Below, piece after piece: positions 604 through 63,973 of a stretch of 64,000 nucleotides of DNA (its first letter is position 1; every line of letters starts with the position of its first letter). The notes under the pieces are model-generated. The model saw nothing but the letters and a program-made list of their open reading frames with translations, was not told the origin of the DNA and did no database searches. The DNA lies in IMG/VR virus record IMGVR_UViG_3300028591_000090, positions 1 to 64,000 of that record; one strand, written 5' to 3'. Source of the DNA: a virus. Its lineage: Duplodnaviria > Caudoviricetes. Made by a program: the position numbers and the translations under genes.

Positions 604-1056
604 ATGTATAAGTTAGAGATTACAATAGGATATGGAGAGTATTGTGATGATATGTTCACACGGTCATATCTGGAGATAGACGATGAGAAAGCGTTAAGGT
701 ACAAGAATCTGACTGACGAGGAATCGAATGAGTTGGGTTGGGTAGAGTTATCGAATTTGAGTCATTGTATAACAAAAGAGTTAGCGGAGAAGATAGAAAA
801 GTTTTTCAATTCATTATGGGAAAGGGAGACAGGGAAAGGTTATAAGGTGAATCATATTTTATTAAATTACGATTGTGATAGATATTGGTGGATAGAAGAG
901 GGTTGTATGACGGAGGAGGAGTTTGAGTGGTTTAGTGATATATATGATAATTATAATATGTTATTTTGTCCGCAAGTTGGGTGGAACTGGTATGGAGTTG
1001 TAGGGGCGAGGATTGTGTATGAAGATGAGAAAGGGAATATGAGTTATGTTATGTAA
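604..1056 (+). CDS. hypothetical protein
   Basis: 150 aa ORF. Confidence 0.7.
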   Translation: MYKLEITIGYGEYCDDMFTRSYLEIDDEKALRYKNLTDEESNELGWVELSNLSHCITKELAEKIEKFFNSLWERETGKGYKVNHILLNYDCDRYWWIEEGCMTEEEFEWFSDIYDNYNMLFCPQVGWNWYGVVGARIVYEDEKGNMSYVM

Positions 1057-1119
1057 AAAATTTGTATATGTCAAAAATTTTATTTATATTTGCGAAGTTG
1101 AATAATAAAAGATAAAGAT

Positions 1120-1644
1120 ATGAAAAAGTTTAGTGAATTAAAATTTGGTGATTATATATATAGAGTGTATTATAGTGGTGTGGGAGATGGATTATATGCA
1201 GAGGCGGTAAGAAATAATCGAGAGAATGTAGTATTTGACACTTTGCGTTATCTGGGAGAAGAAGACGTACCTTGGTTTGATATTAAGGATAGGAGCAATA
1301 TGGGTTATAAGTGTTATATAACGACGGATTTAAACGATGCGATAGAGAAGTATGCAGAGAAGTTTGATATAAAGCCAGAGAAGATAAAAGTTATTATGTA
1401 TGATGAGCATGGTAATAAAAGTGAGAAGGAGATGAGTCTTTATGATTTTCGTAATGTATTGGTAGTAAAGAACTATGTTGCGTTTATGAAAGAGAATATG
1501 AATGTATTAAATTCAGACGAAGATAAGTTGGCGACAGAGATACATGTAGATGATTTATGTGTAAAAGCACCGAGTGGGTATATGATTGGTAATGTAACGC
1601 CAACTGGTAATGGATATTTGGTAGAGTATAGAAAAAAGGAATAA
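1120..1644 (+). CDS. hypothetical protein
   Basis: ORF after promoter. Confidence 0.75.
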   Translation: MKKFSELKFGDYIYRVYYSGVGDGLYAEAVRNNRENVVFDTLRYLGEEDVPWFDIKDRSNMGYKCYITTDLNDAIEKYAEKFDIKPEKIKVIMYDEHGNKSEKEMSLYDFRNVLVVKNYVAFMKENMNVLNSDEDKLATEIHVDDLCVKAPSGYMIGNVTPTGNGYLVEYRKKE

Positions 1645-10909: not shown

Positions 10910-11457
10910 AAAATGTTAGTGAAATAGAAAAATTAGAGAAAAAACTTGAAAAACTCGAAGAAAAGGATAAAGCGTATAGAGATAAGATATTTGAGAAAAA
11001 GTGTGAATTACGTGATAAAATAGAGTCTTTACAAGAAGACGAGGCAAAGAAGAAAGTTGGGGAAAAGTTCTATAATAAGGTAGTGCATATAACTAAGACG
11101 ATACCATACTGGGAACGAACCGAACATTATATTGGTGTGATAAATCCAGACACTATATGTTCACAAGGATTTTACATGTATAAATACGCATTATACGTGC
11201 GAATAGAAAATAATGTTATAGAGACTCTCTTTCTTTACGAACATGATGGTTGCGGTGTAGATAATGTAAACCCAAATGAATTATTTAAAAATGAAACAGT
11301 CACATATGGTAATAAAGAGAAATGTATATTCACAATAAAACTAGCATCAAAGAAAGACAGTGAGTTTATACAACAAGTATTTGAAACAAAAAAGAAACAA
11401 GATAATGCAAAAATGGACAAATTGAGAGATTTTTGCATTTCGATGTTCAATCATTAA
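10906..11457 (+). CDS. hypothetical protein
   Basis: ATGA overlap, coiled-coil N-terminus. Confidence 0.7.
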   Translation: MKNVSEIEKLEKKLEKLEEKDKAYRDKIFEKKCELRDKIESLQEDEAKKKVGEKFYNKVVHITKTIPYWERTEHYIGVINPDTICSQGFYMYKYALYVRIENNVIETLFLYEHDGCGVDNVNPNELFKNETVTYGNKEKCIFTIKLASKKDSEFIQQVFETKKKQDNAKMDKLRDFCISMFNH

Positions 11458-11525
11458 TTAAAAAATTTGCAAAAATTAAAAAGATTGTTTATATTTGCAG
11501 AGTTAAATTTAAATGTAAAAGAACG

Positions 11526-11705
11526 ATGAAAGTTAAAATAAGACATAGAGAAGATATTAGTACAGAATGTATTTACATTGAGGTAAAGAACAAGGAATAT
11601 CAGATAAAAGAGTGTGTTGATGGTCTTAAAATTATTGAAATATCAAATAATAAAGACCTAAATATTCGCCCTCACAGCGGAAATTCTATTGTTTTAGTAG
11701 ATTAA
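11526..11705 (+). CDS. hypothetical protein
   Basis: ORF after promoter. Confidence 0.55.
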   Translation: MKVKIRHREDISTECIYIEVKNKEYQIKECVDGLKIIEISNNKDLNIRPHSGNSIVLVD

Positions 11706-12029: not shown

Positions 12030-12728
12030 ATGGCAAAAGAAAGAAAACTAAAAATCGGAAATTTTGAAATTGTGTGTTGGAAGGATTTTCCTTGCTTTAG
12101 ACTAACATTTGCAAAATGTGGATATTTTGACGGAAGACCAGAAATAAAACTCGGCATTATTTTTTGGACTGTTATTATAAAACTTCCGTTTATAAACAAA
12201 GAATGGCAAAATGAATGTGACCCACCAGAATATGGCATCGCAATACATAGTAATTCGTTCTGGTTGTATTATGGTGGCGAAGGCAATATGCACGGTGGCA
12301 CAAAATGGATTGCGTGGGATATTCCGTTTGTCACTCGTTGCTTTTACAAGCATGAAGTTTGGGGTTGTCATGGTTGGATTGATGTTACAGATAGAGATGT
12401 GTATCAAAGCAGAGTTGGGTACTTGAACTACGAAGATAGAGATGAATCGACAGATGCTATGGTATTTCATGGCATTTGGAAAGACTTTGATGGGGAAGAA
12501 GTTCCTGCAATCTATCGTCTTGAAAGAAGGACATGGAGACGCAAATGGTTGATGTGGACTAATTTGTTTGACCATCAACGTACTGAAATAGAAGTTTCAT
12601 TTAAGTCTGGTGTAGGGAAAGGCAAGGGTTCTTGGAAAGGGGGAGTATATGGTACGGGTTTTGAGATTAAACCAAAAGAATCCCCTCAAGAATGCTTTGA
12701 AAGAGCAAATAGAGAAAATCGTCTATAA
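12030..12728 (+). CDS. conserved phage protein (Trp/Gly-rich)
   Basis: 232 aa, GKGKGSWKGG motif. Confidence 0.75.
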   Translation: MAKERKLKIGNFEIVCWKDFPCFRLTFAKCGYFDGRPEIKLGIIFWTVIIKLPFINKEWQNECDPPEYGIAIHSNSFWLYYGGEGNMHGGTKWIAWDIPFVTRCFYKHEVWGCHGWIDVTDRDVYQSRVGYLNYEDRDESTDAMVFHGIWKDFDGEEVPAIYRLERRTWRRKWLMWTNLFDHQRTEIEVSFKSGVGKGKGSWKGGVYGTGFEIKPKESPQECFERANRENRL

Positions 12729-12780
12729 TCATTAAATCATAAACAATTTCCATTTAATTGATAAAACAAAATTAAAAAAA

Positions 12781-13062
12781 ATGAAAATGATAAAAACAAT
12801 ATTAAAACCATTTTTGCGTATTATTGCTTGTTTAATGTATATTCCATTGGCAATACTAACATTATTATTTACAACTATATTTTTTATCTTTTTATGTGTT
12901 CTTGCATTATTCGGTTTTATTTTTACTGGAGATATTTACACTTATACAGATAAACTTATTGATAAATTAGATAAATATTTAGGTTGGTTTATATTAGACG
13001 AAAACGCAAGTCTTATCTTAAATTATAATGATATGGTGTTTGATAAAATAAATGAATGGTAA
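12781..13062 (+). CDS. membrane protein
   Basis: long hydrophobic stretch. Confidence 0.6.
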   Translation: MKMIKTILKPFLRIIACLMYIPLAILTLLFTTIFFIFLCVLALFGFIFTGDIYTYTDKLIDKLDKYLGWFILDENASLILNYNDMVFDKINEW

Positions 13063-13941: not shown

Positions 13942-15192
13942 ATGAAGATAGATTTATCAAAATACGGAGAAGAAGTACAAACAGGAGCAAGATTATGTTC
14001 TCAAATAATGTCATTTAACTTTGAGGCATACATTGTTGGTGGTTGTGTTAGAGATATGGTTATGGGTAATATCGACATTCACGATGTTGATATTGCAACC
14101 AATATGCCTATAGACTTGTTAAAAACACATTTTGATTGTGCAGATAATAACGGAGAAAAACACGGTACTATTCTCGTTAAATATGATGGTTTTGTCTTCG
14201 AGGTAACACAGTTCAGAACAGACGGAGATTATTCTGATGGTCGTCACCCAGATAATGTTATTTTCACTAAAACTCTTAAAGAGGATATGGCACGTAGAGA
14301 TTTTACTATCAATGCTATGGCTATTAATTGTCATGGATTACTGATAGATTATTTTGGTGGAGAGGAAGATTTACAGTCTTTAACATTAAGAACTGTTGGA
14401 GATAGCCAACAAAGATTTGATGAAGATGGTCTTCGTATTCTTCGTGCTATTCGTTTTGCTTCACGATTCAAAATGGAGATACATAAAGATACGTGGAATG
14501 GCATCACAAAAAAGAAAGAAAATCTAAAGAAAATTGCACGAGAAAGAATAGGTGATGAACTATACAAGACTGCACAATATGGTAAAGATGCTTTTACTCG
14601 TATGATTCAGTTAATTATAAACTTACACATTGATGAAGTTATTGATGGTCAACAAATAATTGACTGGCGTTTTGCACTTACTTTATTAAACAACGTAAAA
14701 GAAGAAACAGATACGAAATTCTTATTCGCTGTATTATTCTATAATTGTAAAGACCTAAAAGAATCAATTAAAATGTTTAGGTTCGATAATGATTTATATA
14801 AAACATTGAAGTTTGTTTATGACAATATAAACGTCTTTACTGATATAGAAACAGCAAAAGATTTAGACAAACAATTACAAGTTTATACACACAAGGATTT
14901 CGATACGTTGAATAATATGATGATACTTCTTCAAAAGAATTATTTACACGAAACAGAAAGAAAAGAATTTGATATACTTGTAAAAAATGTTTGGTGCGAT
15001 AATAAAATGTTGAGCGAAGTTCTTCTTGAATATGGTAATGTTGGTGGAAAAGATTTCGGTAGTGCGTTAAAAATATTAAGAAATACTTATTATCTGTATT
15101 ACCGTTATCATAATGAAAAGATAAGCAAAGAACAAATTATTGAAACAGTAAAGAAATTTTTTGGTGAAAATATTTGCAAGTGTGAAAAATAA
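13942..15192 (+). CDS. cca: class II CCA-adding tRNA nucleotidyltransferase
   Basis: VGGCVRD, DVDIAT, RRDFTINAM, EDGLRILRAIRF; window tRNAs lack encoded CCA. Confidence 0.92.
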   Translation: MKIDLSKYGEEVQTGARLCSQIMSFNFEAYIVGGCVRDMVMGNIDIHDVDIATNMPIDLLKTHFDCADNNGEKHGTILVKYDGFVFEVTQFRTDGDYSDGRHPDNVIFTKTLKEDMARRDFTINAMAINCHGLLIDYFGGEEDLQSLTLRTVGDSQQRFDEDGLRILRAIRFASRFKMEIHKDTWNGITKKKENLKKIARERIGDELYKTAQYGKDAFTRMIQLIINLHIDEVIDGQQIIDWRFALTLLNNVKEETDTKFLFAVLFYNCKDLKESIKMFRFDNDLYKTLKFVYDNINVFTDIETAKDLDKQLQVYTHKDFDTLNNMMILLQKNYLHETERKEFDILVKNVWCDNKMLSEVLLEYGNVGGKDFGSALKILRNTYYLYYRYHNEKISKEQIIETVKKFFGENICKCEK

Positions 15193-33418: not shown

Positions 33419-34765
33419 TTAATTTTCATCTTCAATATTTGATTCTCCTGCCTCAAGTTCTTTCGTTTCTTTCTCATAAAAACGTGTTGACTTAACTTTA
33501 TAGGATTCAATACCATTGATTTCCTTTCTTACAACACAGCCCTCTTCTGGTTCGCCATTTTGACAAATATAACAATCTTTTTCGTTATAATCATCTTTAA
33601 GGAATTGCAAGAAAGCCTCCTCAAACTCGATTTCAGTCATATCGTGACAAACTCCACCAATATGGTCTGGATAATGTTTGTCAATATATTGTTCTGCTGT
33701 ACCATAGAATAACAAAGGAACAGCATTCAATCCATATTCTTTACAGAAATCTTGTACTTGTTTCATAGAGAATTCAAATACTTGACCATCTACATTTGTG
33801 TATGTGATTCGATAAATGTAAATCTTATGTTCGTTTGGTTGGCAACCATAAGGATAACCCTTTTGAATACAACCACCATCTTTTAGATAGCCTGCAATTT
33901 CATAATAGAACGTCATACCTTTTTTAAGAAATGGTTTCAATTCTTCATTTGCAATCTCCCAAATGTTTTCTCCATAGAAATCGTGACGCTCTCTGTCTTC
34001 GTAAGCAAACTCATTTTTTACAACTTTACGAGATGCATAAACATAGTCATAATCAACAAACGTCTTATTGAATAACTTCTTTTGTAATTTTTCAAACCAA
34101 GATAGGTTTGTTCTATTGCAAAGAATATAAGAAGAGATACCAGATGTACCGTGAATCTTATATGTAACAGAAATCAAATCATCTCTATGAATCTTTGATA
34201 GGTTACGATACAACATTTGCGTATCAATATGGAATCTAAATTGATTATCTACAAGTCTTGATATTCTTTTTAGTTTTCTATTGCTTTTTGATTCTCTAAA
34301 ACCATTAGAACTTTGCTGATGTTTAACAACATATTTACGACAGATTTCATGTCCGTTAATATTATCAAATTGAACACCAATTTCAAGTTCTTCGTCTTCT
34401 GGACGCATAAACCATTTGATTGTTTCCATTCCGACAAACAATCCCTCTGATTCATTACCACGAAGTTTTACACAACGAACAAGACCATTCTTACCGAAGT
34501 AACCTTTTACGTTTGTATCTTCGTTCATTTCTGCTTTTGAATACATATTATTCTTAAACAAAAATGCATTATCCATTTGTGTACCAACAGGGAAAAATAT
34601 ACCTTTCGTTCCTGCTTCTACATCTTTAGTAACAATAACTTTATTACCAAAAATGATAGCGTGACGCAAATTATCACAATTTGGTAAATCTACTAGATGT
34701 TCAATAGTACAAACAATACCACAATAATTTGAATTTACAACTTCTTTAATAACTGCCTTTCCCAT
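33419..34765 (-). CDS. RNA ligase (Rnl2/DRB0094-type) with N-terminal OB-like domain
   Basis: KIHGTS, YEIAG, EGCVVR, KVKS nucleotidyltransferase motifs. Confidence 0.85.
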   Translation of the reverse strand: MGKAVIKEVVNSNYCGIVCTIEHLVDLPNCDNLRHAIIFGNKVIVTKDVEAGTKGIFFPVGTQMDNAFLFKNNMYSKAEMNEDTNVKGYFGKNGLVRCVKLRGNESEGLFVGMETIKWFMRPEDEELEIGVQFDNINGHEICRKYVVKHQQSSNGFRESKSNRKLKRISRLVDNQFRFHIDTQMLYRNLSKIHRDDLISVTYKIHGTSGISSYILCNRTNLSWFEKLQKKLFNKTFVDYDYVYASRKVVKNEFAYEDRERHDFYGENIWEIANEELKPFLKKGMTFYYEIAGYLKDGGCIQKGYPYGCQPNEHKIYIYRITYTNVDGQVFEFSMKQVQDFCKEYGLNAVPLLFYGTAEQYIDKHYPDHIGGVCHDMTEIEFEEAFLQFLKDDYNEKDCYICQNGEPEEGCVVRKEINGIESYKVKSTRFYEKETKELEAGESNIEDEN

Positions 34766-51629: not shown

Positions 51630-51730
51630 TTCACCTCAAGCATCATTTGTTTAAATGCTTACGTTTACATCTTTTTCCTTTTCCCGTATGTCAAAGAACT
51701 CGTTTGTTTTATTTAACGATGCAAATATAC
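51630..51730 (-). promoter_or_regulatory. internal promoter plus boxA-like leader 2
   Basis: gtatatttgc; gttctttgacatacgggaaaa shared with 53775-53796. Confidence 0.75.
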
Positions 51731-53713: not shown

Positions 53714-53850
53714 TTCACCTTTAGCATCATTTAATAAATGCTTCTGCGTTTGTTTGAATTTTGCTCTATAATCTTTTTCCCGTATGTCAAAGAACTTTTG
53801 GATTATTTGTTGTCGGTTTATCCATTCCGATTTTTTTTGCAAATATACAC
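53714..53850 (-). promoter_or_regulatory. promoter plus boxA-like leader 1 of RNA operon
   Basis: gtatatttgc; aagttctttgacatacggg. Confidence 0.75.
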
Positions 53851-56623: not shown

Positions 56624-56670
56624 AACCTTTACTTTTTATAATTTAACTCTGCAAATATACAAAATAAAAA

Positions 56671-56922
56671 TCAATTAACCAAATTATTTTCATATTTTTG
56701 TTTATCGACATTATAAGACACCCAAGTAGTATAATCGCATTTAGGACAGTCATATCCTCTACCACCTTGGCTATCTGTATCAAATAATTTCAATTTATTT
56801 CCACAACAAGGGCATATTCCATTGTTGTAGGATTTCTTTTCTCTATTATAAGCAATCAAAAAAATTGCTATCCAAATGAGGATAACAATTGCCATTAAAA
56901 TATAAAATAATATACAACACAT
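56671..56922 (-). CDS. TM plus Zn-ribbon protein
   Basis: CPCC...DSQGGRGYDCPKC. Confidence 0.7.
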   Translation of the reverse strand: MCCILFYILMAIVILIWIAIFLIAYNREKKSYNNGICPCCGNKLKLFDTDSQGGRGYDCPKCDYTTWVSYNVDKQKYENNLVN

Positions 56923-56950
56923 AATTTATTTTTTTTTAGTTTTTTTTAAA

Positions 56951-56971
56951 AAAAAGGGTTTGTGAAACCCT
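56951..56971 (-). terminator. intrinsic terminator
   Basis: agggttt-cac-aaaccct plus T-run. Confidence 0.75.
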
Positions 56972-57520
56972 ACCACACTATGTTACCATAGATAAACAAC
57001 GCCTTTCACTAGTATACTTGGCATCAATCGTAATATGAGTTTATATCTCATGTTCTCTAACTAGTATAACGAGGGTTTCCCTTAGCCGCAGCACCCACGA
57101 TGATATAGTTGTTTGTTGTGGTCTTGACTGCTTTACCATATTGAAATTCTTGCAAGTAAGTTTGTTTTGAATATATGTAGGATTTCATACCTACAACTTC
57201 CTACAGCCTAGTAGTCCTCTGATTCTTGACGGTAATATATTCTCAAACCAATTTCAACTTAGGTATCTCCTTTTCAGTCTACACGATTATAAGAATCTTT
57301 TATCCAGTGCAATGGGCTGTCTTCTTCCATTTTATTGACAGCATCTTCTCATTTTCGCTCGGAATAATCCTTACACATTATTAGTTAGTGTTACAAATGT
57401 AATAGATTCACCATACAATGCCTACGGCTTACTCTTATGCCTTTACCAAGGCAGCTATTACATTAAGGATTTCCCGAATTTAGGAGATTCTACATAGGGA
57501 TTTCTCGCCTATGCACACAA
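56970..57520 (-). ncRNA. free-standing group I intron-like RNA
   Basis: P3, P4, P5, P6, P7, P8, P9.0 pairings identifiable. Confidence 0.8.
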
Positions 57521-57560
57521 AATTATTTCAAAGAACTCTTTAATAAATTTTGGAGGTTAT

Positions 57561-57857
57561 TTATCCTTCAAATTCCTCTTTCATTTTGTGAATATTGTAT
57601 TCTTCATCATCCTCCATAAATTTTTTAATATTATCAAATTTTACTTTCAATCCATCTTCACCTAACATATCTCTAAATGATAGCAAATCTCTTTTTGCAC
57701 GGTCTCTTTCTTCTGGATAATCACGGTCATCTGCCATATAGGAACAGAATACTTTCATGTTGTAACTATGAATTTCTTTGTAAATAAGTTCTGTTACTTC
57801 GAGATTTAATTCAAATTTCTTTGAAAGTTTTTCAATGTATGCTTCATATCTTTTCAT
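57561..57857 (-). CDS. hypothetical protein
   Basis: ORF after promoter. Confidence 0.7.
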   Translation of the reverse strand: MKRYEAYIEKLSKKFELNLEVTELIYKEIHSYNMKVFCSYMADDRDYPEERDRAKRDLLSFRDMLGEDGLKVKFDNIKKFMEDDEEYNIHKMKEEFEG

Positions 57858-57903
57858 AACATTACATTTTTTAATTTAACTCTGCAAATATACAAAATAA
57901 AAA

Positions 57904-58296
57904 TCAATTAACCAAATTATTTTCATATTTTTGTTTAAGTCTTAAATATTCTTGATATTCTTTTTCTCTTACTTTCTCAACGGATTTCTTTAATGCTTCC
58001 TTGTAATCGGAAATACGTTTTTTTACCTCTCTTGTGAAAACATCATCATCTAAAAGCCCTTCAAATGAAAAATTACAACTACTATTTAAATATTCATCTT
58101 CAAAACAAAAACCTTTCAAAGGTAATTTAATTATCGAATCTTGAATATGACATCCAAATACTTGGTTATCAGAGACTTCTTCAAATTCACATAGGTAGAG
58201 TGCTATCTTTTTCAATTCTAAAGCTCTTCTATTTATTTTTTCTTGAATCTTCGCACATTGTGTTAGTTCTTCTTTTGTTATCAATTTGTCGCTCAT
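57904..58296 (-). CDS. hypothetical protein
   Basis: EY.EYLRLK.KYE tail. Confidence 0.7.
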   Translation of the reverse strand: MSDKLITKEELTQCAKIQEKINRRALELKKIALYLCEFEEVSDNQVFGCHIQDSIIKLPLKGFCFEDEYLNSSCNFSFEGLLDDDVFTREVKKRISDYKEALKKSVEKVREKEYQEYLRLKQKYENNLVN

Positions 58297-61906: not shown

Positions 61907-63246
61907 ATAGTTTCAAAATCCATAGCAAAATATGGAAATTGTTTATAATTTAACAATTACTGGGTGAACTACAACACCCTCTATCCCATCGTTGAAAACT
62001 TTTGGGAATGCTTTTCTCATGATGTTATAGCTTCCGTTTACATCTGCGTTTATCTTGTTCCCATTTTCTGAAATAAACAAGCCACGGCGAACACGCTTGC
62101 CTTTATAAACATCATGCTTTTTAATTTCTTCCAAATCAAGGAAACTGCATTTAGATGTGTAGTTTTCCTCGTTTGTAATTACTTTTATCCCCACCTTTTC
62201 GCATTTGTATGAAATCATTTCAACAAATCTACTGTGGGGTATTTGTATGAAGTTCTGATTGTTTTTTGAACCGATGTTACAGTCTTTCTTCCATCCGTCG
62301 TTCTTTCCAATAACCAGAACAGATATATTCTTGTCTTTTAAATCATTGACTATTCTCTTACTTGCACGATGCAAGTAGTTGTCTACTTTATTATTCCTTT
62401 TATTTGTGAGCCTTCTTGTCCTATGCGAATGCTTTTTCTTATTGACTTTTTCTAATTTAGACTTATGTTTCGCAAGTTCCTTATTATAGAACTGGTTCAT
62501 CGATTTCAAAGGTTTTCCGTTTATTATAACTGGCTGTTCTCCATACGAATATGTTACCGTAGCAAGGTTATTAACGCCTAAATCAATTGAGGCAATTCTT
62601 TTATTGAATTTTACTTTTTCTACATCATCTATTGTATAGATTACCTCAATTACATATTGCTCGATTCTTGGAACAATCCTTACACAATTTATTGATTTAA
62701 AGTCGTTTATTTTTGTATAAAATTCTATGTTTACTTTTGATAGTTTAATTTTATGGGACTTATCAAATACTTTTTTTGAGATAGTCTGATTGTTGAATAC
62801 TGTAACATATCTTCCATCTTCTTTGTGTAAGAATTTTGGAAACTTGATGTTTTTATTATCAACATTATTTGAACGAATCATTCCGAAAAACGAGTTGCAA
62901 GTCGCATGAACAGCACGAAGTGTCGCCTGAGCAACCTTCTGCGGAAGTCGCTTGAAGCATTCATCGTTCTTCATATATAAATACGAATCATTCAATACAT
63001 TATATGTTTTGCTTTCTTCATATTCCTTTCGTATCAGATATAATGTCCTGTTATATATGTTTTTTGAAGAAAAACACAGCGAATCACATTCCTTATATAA
63101 GGAATGATTTCTATTAATAATATGTCTTTCTACCAATTGCATTTCTGTATAATAATACAGTTTCTTTTTATTATTTATTTGCAAAAATAATTGATTTTTT
63201 TTGTCAAATAAATTGTATTGTTTCCATAAATTTTCTATAATGTTAT
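61907..63246 (-). mobile_element. IS200/IS605-family (IS1341-like, tnpB only) element
   Basis: excision restores TAT AAA ATG ATT TAA stop of upstream gene; TTTAT left flank. Confidence 0.75.
61943..63142 (-). CDS. tnpB: TnpB RNA-guided nuclease (rearranged RuvC type)
   Basis: MQLVERHII, SIDLGVNNL, VIGKN..WK, EENYTSK, NADVNGSYNI. Confidence 0.92.
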   Translation of the reverse strand: MQLVERHIINRNHSLYKECDSLCFSSKNIYNRTLYLIRKEYEESKTYNVLNDSYLYMKNDECFKRLPQKVAQATLRAVHATCNSFFGMIRSNNVDNKNIKFPKFLHKEDGRYVTVFNNQTISKKVFDKSHKIKLSKVNIEFYTKINDFKSINCVRIVPRIEQYVIEVIYTIDDVEKVKFNKRIASIDLGVNNLATVTYSYGEQPVIINGKPLKSMNQFYNKELAKHKSKLEKVNKKKHSHRTRRLTNKRNNKVDNYLHRASKRIVNDLKDKNISVLVIGKNDGWKKDCNIGSKNNQNFIQIPHSRFVEMISYKCEKVGIKVITNEENYTSKCSFLDLEEIKKHDVYKGKRVRRGLFISENGNKINADVNGSYNIMRKAFPKVFNDGIEGVVVHPVIVKL

Positions 63247-63973
63247 ATAAAAATAATACAGACAATAAACTTGCTGGAATATTTTCATAAGTGAAATAAC
63301 AATTTTTAATATTCATTGCTGTATCTTTATATATCTTAATATTATTTAATTTATTTAAATTTATTTTAAAAACAACATATTGTTTAAGTCCAAGACTATC
63401 TGCCAATTCTGATAATTGTTCATCTATTGTACTAAAATCACTTGTTGAATATAAAAAAATCTTTTCTGGATAATATCTATATTCTGCACTTCGGCAACGT
63501 AATCCTTTTTTCATAATAAAGTTATAGTTTCTTTTATTTGTTATATGGAAACAAATTCCTTTATTTTCATTAAAGATTATATCCGTTGCATCTGTTGTAT
63601 AAACTGGTTCTATATATAATGTATCATCATCATTATAAGTAATATAATAATTAAAAAAATCTAATATATTTTTAAAATGTTCATTTAACAGTATTTCTAT
63701 TTTCCTATCTTTATTTTTACATTTAATTTCAAGGTTTGTTTTATCATCACTTGTTATCTTATTATATTCAACATCATCTGCAACATATTGTTTTAATTTT
63801 GCAATAAGAGAGTCTATATTATGAGATTGTAACATTTCACCTATAAAATCATATCTCCAATCTTCATTAAATTTTTCTTCAATCAATGAAAAGTCATTAC
63901 CGAAGAAATCTTTCAAAAATTTCTTTTTCTCGCAACATTTACAATATTCGTCAAACAGTAATACTTTTTTCAT
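63247..63973 (-). CDS. ART/Tpt1-like fold protein whose stop was displaced by the IS (reads into tnpB)
   Basis: FHIT...I.KKGL...IFL...NIP..L; LLFDEY start. Confidence 0.55.

Follow-up and report, generated by a model that had tools for sequence, protein, structure and literature searches.

Group I ribozymes are, to our knowledge, known almost only as introns, and a group I-like RNA that lies in no gene raises the question of what it descends from and what, if anything, it does. Such an RNA, about 570 bases long, is encoded on the minus strand (57537-56969) of the window, by which we mean the whole 64,000-nt stretch of DNA analysed here, part of a 183.6-kb IMG/VR virus record. The window is AT-rich and carries 24 tRNA genes. 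The RNA sits in an ORF-free gap between ORF98 (57857-57561) and ORF83 (56922-56671), both on the minus strand. The original prediction took it for a group I core put to a new use, as a trans-acting ribozyme, a G-binding RNA or a scaffold, a role that is hypothetical.

The group I core of a stand-alone RNA

An unconstrained minimum-energy fold of the RNA already recovers P2 to P6, and 57 of the 58 core pairs in the window copy are standard pairs. The minus strand carries all of the helices originally named, P2 to P9, in canonical order; they include the P4-P6 domain and the P3/P7 pseudoknot, and the catalytic core is entire (Table 1). The covariation called for at the outset was found when 23 copies were aligned: standard pairs fill 95.1% of the cells, as compared to 31-42% when the partners are slid, and both sides have changed in 22 pairs as compared to 8.1 in shuffles, none of 500 shuffles reaching 22. 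Every helix is backed by covariation in this alignment; in P3, compensatory changes were seen at loci L027, L046 and L007.

The predicted bulged A and G-C guanosine-binding pair of P7 correspond to A57280 and the candidate pair G57279-C57126, which occupy the same columns in the sequences of 28 of 30 true introns (described below). A terminal omega G had been placed at 56970; the G is there, one base away, since the residue that aligns with omega G in 30/30 true introns is G56969, within a run of three G. J8/7 is shortened as had been noticed, to 4 nt versus 7 nt in 29/30 true introns. The supposed loss of tandem A's from J5/4 turned out to be no anomaly, its sequence being normal for the intron family.

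Table 1. Features of the window RNA and its surroundings (window positions; helices are given as 5' strand / 3' strand).
Feature	Position	Strand	Remarks
Nearest upstream promoter	57862..57937	-	TTTG, ~19 nt, TAnnTTTG type
ORF98 (P0001)	57561..57857	-	complete
Leader GAGTTCTTTGAAA (GAGUUCUUUGAAA)	57526..57538	-	boxA-like; from A57537 homologous to the start of the L057 intron
Guide (IGS) region	57521-57516	-	UUUGUG; GUG 57518-57516 is the 3-nt guide of tRNA-Met(CAU) introns
P2 hairpin	57514-57508 / 57498-57492 (span 57492..57514)	-	conserved loop CGAGAAAUC
P3	57488-57482 / 57271-57265	-	covariation
J3/4	within 57351..57481 domain	-	AAA
P4	57478-57473 / 57363-57358	-	
P5	57469-57465 / 57372-57368	-	variable P5 extension 57464-57373
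P6	57357-57355 / 57286-57284	-	3' strand followed by J6/7
P7	U57281, bulged A57280, 57279-57275 / 57130-57125	-	3' strand CAGUCA
J7/3	in 57265..57290	-	AAA, between P7 5' strand and P3 3' strand
P8	57264-57250 / 57148-57135	-	receptor-like motif CCUAAG...UAUGG; variable 101-nt insert 57249-57149
J8/7	57134-57131	-	AAAG
P9.0	57122-57118 / 56976-56972	-	followed by P9a and a variable 111-nt insert
P9	56991-56978	-	GUAA hairpin
Terminal G	56969	-	end of P9 region 56969..57122
3' hairpin	56947..56971	-	AGGGUUU-CAC-AAACCCU then U8; terminator-like
AGTTCTTTGACATACGGGAAAA, boxA-like leader	53785-53797 and 51689-51701	-	after both tRNA-operon promoters of the window

Searches of the window with Rfam returned no match for the RNA, either at the gathering score or at E<=10, and thus no covariance-model match to group I, a result that the original prediction had named beforehand as counting against it. 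At E<=1, six loci with relatives likewise gave no group I match to the family copies, the only match being to a different small intron in L024. We give greater weight to the homology that links the RNA directly to spliceable tRNA introns; these too escape Rfam. The group I seeds of Rfam contain no bacterial intron (bioRxiv 10.1101/2020.01.27.920355). The Rfam models of ROOL and GOLLD also left the window unmatched at the gathering score and at E<=10. The RNA had no blastn match among GenBank phages, an exact 21-mer from P7-P3 had no match, and querying viral contigs with ORF98, ORF83 and the helicase did not retrieve relatives. A leader-plus-P2 pattern found only L059 and chance matches among viral contigs; among metagenome contigs it found L057/L058, a true tRNA-Met intron. 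RNase P RNA, tmRNA and TnpB guide RNA were dropped as identities for the RNA following Rfam, tRNA and ORF scans.

A family of introns in phage tRNA genes

Relatives were gathered by two exact-pattern scans of viral contigs, with the P2 loop and the P8 3' strand as patterns. The scans yielded about 70 distinct copies, on metagenomic phage contigs of up to 410 kb. Some 30 of these are flanked by tRNA halves, and joining the halves at the U and the terminal G produces canonical tRNAs. Each of these true introns has a U at position -1, 3/3 guide pairs including U.G, and an omega G, the guide being the 3 nt before P2. They split tRNA-Leu(UAA) at 34/35, tRNA-Met(CAU) at 36/37 and tRNA-Arg(UCU) at either 36/37 or 34/35, and they interrupt tRNA-Lys(UUU) and tRNA-Tyr(GUA) in the anticodon loop. 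The analysis documents a large family of group I introns that have five types of phage tRNA gene as hosts, with two different insertion sites in tRNA-Arg.

The core of the family consists of five blocks, 216 nt in all, that are 80-100% identical among copies. Block by block, the core of the window RNA is homologous to that of the introns that restore canonical tRNAs and, judged by this sequence evidence, the RNA is a genuine member of group I. The four peripheral inserts (in P5, P6, P8 and P9) show a likeness among copies that is no better than that of shuffled sequence. In two copies at different tRNA-Arg sites, L047 and L055, a 67-nt P8 insert is common at 99% identity while the other inserts are unrelated; inserts are thus exchanged as modules. 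The use of core-versus-insert identity as a clock was dropped, given this module exchange and the shuffled-level identity of inserts in every pair.

In L012, L014, L017, L020, L036, L046, L057 and some 25 further loci, the tRNA introns are about 460-830 nt long. The split tRNA genes are not recognised as such by ARAGORN and Rfam tRNA scans, and phage tRNA sets are therefore under-counted. One intron in tRNA-Leu(UAA) contains an ORF for a 201-aa LAGLIDADG_2 endonuclease (L019:2427-3032; 79 bits), placed between the P7 5' strand and the P3 3' strand, an unusual site for an intron ORF. The P8 insert of another intron splitting tRNA-Leu holds a tRNA-like gene (L011:8036-8102, minus strand; 43 bits), and T-arm-like hairpins of the form GGUUCGAnUCC occur in many inserts, for example in L007, L012, L013, L018 and L059. 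In a further form, found at L218 (~12430-13060), L219, L228, L245, L247 and L249, the core goes no further than the P7 3' strand and directly adjoins a tRNA-like gene; this form is without P9 and omega G and has a conserved element GGUCAGUGGUGGAGGACUGA...GUCAGCCCCUAACAA upstream. On a 410-kb phage contig, a separate small group I intron (L024:2032-2260; RF00028, 46.6 bits) lies just upstream of a family copy (from 2455) that has neither U nor guide between anticodon stem and P2. A permuted tmRNA match (L017:6425-6701, minus strand; 63.8 bits) adjoins an intron-bearing tRNA-Leu in a phage tRNA array.

Copies without exons, their leaders and their 3' hairpins

The window copy stands apart from the true introns in that no join of its flanks, of whatever kind, produces a tRNA, the nearest tRNA being 3 kb away. 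The homology to the tRNA-Met intron of L057 (CAU|AGUUCUUUGAAAG...) starts at A57537 and ends at G56969, and the base at the ancestral -1 position is G57538 and not U. Judging from this alignment, the nearest spliceable form of the RNA is the tRNA-Met(CAU) type with guide GUG. The expectation that no convincing P1 would be visible held for the upstream side, where pairing between an exon and the guide, with U.G at the 5' splice site, was not found; a P1-like partner does exist downstream, at the apex of the 3' hairpin (see below).

Nor does the RNA interrupt a protein gene. Relatives of ORF98 are 96-98 aa long whether or not the RNA follows, and in distant phages an ORF98 relative (47% identity) is directly followed by another gene, and ORF98 is therefore complete without the RNA. 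An intron splitting one gene into ORF98 and ORF83 was dropped on these grounds. Together with the ORF-free gap and the fruitless joins, this bears out the original claim that neither an ORF nor a tRNA is interrupted. A closer ORF98 relative, 90% identical, is present on two short contigs, L007 and L008, with an RNA variant at the same place. This variant is identical in its 5' part and reshaped in its interior, and compensatory changes are seen in its P3, P4 and P7.

These observations also bear on whether the RNA could be an ordinary cis-splicing intron with cryptic exons that are not tRNA, for example with a 5' splice site UAU|U after 57543 that pairs with GUG and with G56969 as omega G. Splicing of this kind would join the 3' UTR of ORF98 to the tail. 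The window, L029 and L007 all retain the guide GUG and the terminal G, and a UAU does lie 28 nt upstream of the guide. However, UAU is expected by chance in the AT-rich leader and its distance is not conserved in L029; the base homologous to the true 5' splice site is a G; relatives without the RNA have a complete ORF98; no coding sequences would be joined by the splicing, which would also destroy the terminator stem; and omega G is absent from other exon-less copies. We regard this explanation as improbable.

Besides the window copy, exon-less copies are found at L029, L215, L059 (two copies, a and b) and L007. Sister to the window copy is that of L029, which shows 97% identity in the core and has the same 3' hairpin; its neighbours on both sides are unrelated protein genes, and the helicase of its phage shares only 30% identity with that of the window phage. 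At L215, a promoter of its own is followed by 19 nt, the leader GUUCUUUGAAAAU, the RNA and a homologous hairpin with T6. The L059 copies stand in tandem between complete tRNAs, both with the leader and both without omega G. At L023, L038 and L048, promoter and leader are present, and the 3' end differs and abuts a tRNA; the tRNA after the exon-less RNA of L038 (~11400-11570) has an anticodon-loop insert of about 75 nt that holds a T-arm-like hairpin.

Standard pairs make up 97.1% of core pairs in the exon-less copies as a group versus 94.8% in the true introns, so that the exon-less helices show no decay. Pairing of U(-1) with the guide is absent in 6/6 exon-less copies examined, though L059b has a U there. 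Omega G is absent in L059a, L059b and L215, and the spacing is short in 3/4 exon-less copies. The G-pocket pair is G.A in L215 according to the tabulated test, and in L059a a reading of the sequence by eye, outside that test, gives G.U; the damaged G pockets of these two copies fit a loss of catalysis or decay.

The main alternative to a retained RNA is that the window copy is a stranded intron relic, left functionless and bound to decay after recombination in or near a tRNA array removed its tRNA-Met exons, and surviving owing to recent loss of the exons or to horizontal spread of such copies. We consider this account possible, though not probable. Intermediates of the required kind exist: a second copy in L018 (L018b) has lost only its 5' tRNA half; L044, L054 and L243 keep the acceptor strand and are without D arm and anticodon-stem 5' strand; and in L216 (~800-1460, minus strand) the copy breaks off just past the P8 3' strand, where a tRNA 3' half is joined directly to it. 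These loci resemble steps in the loss of exons or introns. The splice determinants are eroded in the exon-less copies. No partner protein or conserved neighbour travelling with the RNA was found in the loci compared, and a tree of the core neither supported nor rejected the exon-less copies as one lineage (AU p=0.48). Since the core is 80-100% identical across the family and insert modules have been swapped, the intact helices could reflect recent origin or spread and not selection, the core being so uniform that a short elapsed time would suffice. Against a relic stand the helices of the exon-less copies, as intact as those of the true introns, with the changes hitting splice-specific sites, and the promoters that the L215 and L038 copies have of their own.

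The leader of the window copy resembles AGUUCUUUGACAUAC, which is found 35-45 nt after both tRNA-operon promoters of the window, and a boxA-like leader also follows the L215 and L038 promoters. In bacteria, boxA is a GUUCUUUGA-type motif that occurs soon after rRNA and tRNA operon promoters and is bound by NusB/NusE; the leader matches what we take to be the boxA consensus of many bacteria. The prediction that the RNA follows a boxA-like motif thus holds, with the same motif behind the two tRNA-operon promoters of the window, but the boxA reading is weakened because the spliced intron of L057 starts with the same words and because the leader is degenerate in L029. A literature search with the boxA motif returned primer matches only.

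It had further been proposed that the RNA travels in a cassette bounded by 64-bp promoter repeats. The repeats in question, 76 nt long (57862-57937 and 56629-56704) and 97% identical, are copies of the general promoter of the phage, which the window contains in at least 25 places. The homology of L007, moreover, extends only 13 nt upstream of the ORF98 start codon, and L007 is without the promoter ahead of ORF98; we therefore do not retain the cassette. The TTTG / TAnnTTTG promoter type is presumably of the Bacteroidota kind. No phage-type promoter was seen between ORF98 and the RNA, which makes it likely, as far as promoter-like sequences tell, that the two are co-transcribed from the promoter near 57892, with ORF98 upstream. 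A 676-aa TnpB-like ORF with OrfB_IS605 and Cas12f1-like TNB domains (61943-63973, minus strand) precedes the RNA by 4 kb; other parts of the window encode a CCA-adding-type nucleotidyltransferase (13942-15192) and an RNA ligase (33419-34765).

At its 3' end the RNA runs at once into a terminator, as had been predicted: a hairpin of 7 pairs (56971-56955; -6.8 kcal/mol) followed by T8. The loop and upper 3' arm of this hairpin read CACAAA (56964-56959) and complement the guide region UUUGUG exactly, with 6/6 Watson-Crick pairs. In L215 the corresponding sequences are UGUGUG and CACACA, again 6/6, and compared with the window a U-A pair has become G-C, a compensatory change. Guide and hairpin form 6/6 pairs including one G.U in L029 and 5/6 in L007, and in L059 the guide region CAUUG faces a flanking CAAUG in a pairing that can be extended to 9-10 bp. 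In the 25 nt after omega G of 32 true introns, no six-base match reaches more than 4 Watson-Crick pairs. This position-specific Watson-Crick count replaced a test of the longest contiguous helix between guide and 3' flank with G.U allowed, which was not significant, most shuffles reaching the same length. A single guide match of 5-6 bp in AT-rich sequence is insignificant; the case is made by its position, its Watson-Crick content, the compensatory change and its recurrence in 3-4 lineages. In the tRNA-Met introns the guide region AUUGUG complements the spliced anticodon loop CAUAAU, so that the window hairpin resembles the ligated-exon product in tethered form. That the leader and a guide-complementary 3' hairpin are kept across very distant phages, with compensatory change, is a further point against a functionless relic.

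The same pairing could in principle serve as a fold-dependent terminator switch, in which the folded core, possibly with guanosine bound, lets the guide capture CACAAA and open three U-A pairs of the terminator stem, giving read-through into ORF83. The G pocket of the window copy is intact and, since CACAAA falls within the terminator hairpin, partly in its loop and partly in its 3' arm, the two pairings partly exclude each other. Yet the GGG/CCC base of the stem would stay paired, the L059 hairpin is not terminator-like and that of L029 is weak (T4), and no conserved downstream gene was found in the loci compared. A switch therefore seems to us quite unlikely.

Possible roles and known systems

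We are inclined, with confidence a little better than even, to see the window RNA as a non-splicing, self-docking derivative of a tRNA-Met intron that is expressed as a stable RNA. Its ancestors would be the roughly 500-nt group I introns in the tRNA anticodon loops of large phages with Bacteroidota-type promoters, and the exon-less RNA would be made on the ORF98 transcript, without splicing. Docking would bring its guide UUUGUG together with CACAAA in the apex of the RNA's 3' hairpin, itself a copy of the ligated tRNA-Met anticodon loop, to give a closed, product-like complex. Any chemistry would most likely fall on its own tail, either as guanosine-dependent cleavage after C56962 or as hydrolysis after G56969, and would trim the 3' end of the RNA. 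Group I chemistry prefers a U.G wobble at the cleavage site. The would-be site here carries a C, giving a C-G pair and not the wobble, which should favour docking over fast cleavage.

A broader reading is more tentative: the exon-less copies may represent a new class of stand-alone, group I-derived RNA genes in large phages, kept by selection for a job other than splicing. Members would share a promoter or operon position, a boxA-like leader, an intact fold and, on the guide, a 3'-tethered mimic of the spliced anticodon loop. One candidate job would be to trim itself to a stable RNA, one that engages the anticodon loops of tRNAs or host factors that target tRNAs, and another the fold-dependent or guanosine-dependent switching of its own terminator. 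If the RNA is indeed kept by selection, it would be one of the few instances of a ribozyme fold recruited to a different task, with its own expression signals and a product mimic built onto its guide, in viruses that invest heavily in tRNA biology.

Of the known systems, the group I introns of bacterial tRNA genes are similar in having the same core order, a 3-nt guide directly before P2 and an omega G. They have AAAUUCGG in J3/4-P4 in common with the window RNA, as well as GUAGAGACU..ACGG......CCUAAG across P7-P3-P8, a motif found in at least 120 bacterial genomes. A 218-nt tRNA-Leu(UAA) intron in a Bacteroidetes assembly (L106; RF00028, 54.6 bits) has a core colinear with the blocks of the phage family. 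In contrast to these introns, the window RNA is without exons and without a U.G splice site, is about 2.6 times longer owing to its P5, P6, P8 and P9 inserts, and has a short J8/7 and a guide-complementary 3' hairpin.

The introns of the T4 td/nrdB type and of Jug phages are likewise phage-borne group I ribozymes, some of them mobile via homing endonucleases, to which the LAGLIDADG ORF of L019 may be compared. Those introns interrupt ORFs, whereas the present family is found in tRNA genes and the window copy in no gene. Jug phages carry many introns in protein genes (PMC12880540), and a 2014 review noted that all phage introns then known were in protein genes, despite phage-encoded tRNAs (PMC3984707). 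Our literature search found no report of group I introns in phage tRNA genes or of exon-less copies. ROOL and GOLLD RNAs resemble the window RNA in size (~500-600 nt), phage origin and association with tRNA regions, but its fold is that of group I, and an Rfam match to either is absent.

A precedent for a group I-derived RNA that does not splice is the GIR1 lariat-capping ribozyme, which acts on its own transcript. Its core is rearranged, its product is a lariat cap, and its setting is a twin-ribozyme intron, in which it precedes a homing endonuclease gene. The window RNA would be similar in having a group I-like core that no longer splices and its own transcript as substrate, but a rearranged core, a twin-ribozyme context and a lariat cap are all unseen for it: an enclosing intron is absent, and the flanking ORFs contain no endonuclease domain.

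A parallel to the proposed docking is offered by the ribozyme-product complexes of the Azoarcus intron, in which the same guide GUG holds a CAU-type anticodon-loop strand via P1 and P10; recent structures present the ligated exon, or CAU, bound to this guide (PMC13168695). In the window RNA, by comparison, the strand that would be bound is encoded in the genome and tethered 4 nt after the terminal G, and it reads CAC, with a C-G pair taking the place of the U.G wobble.
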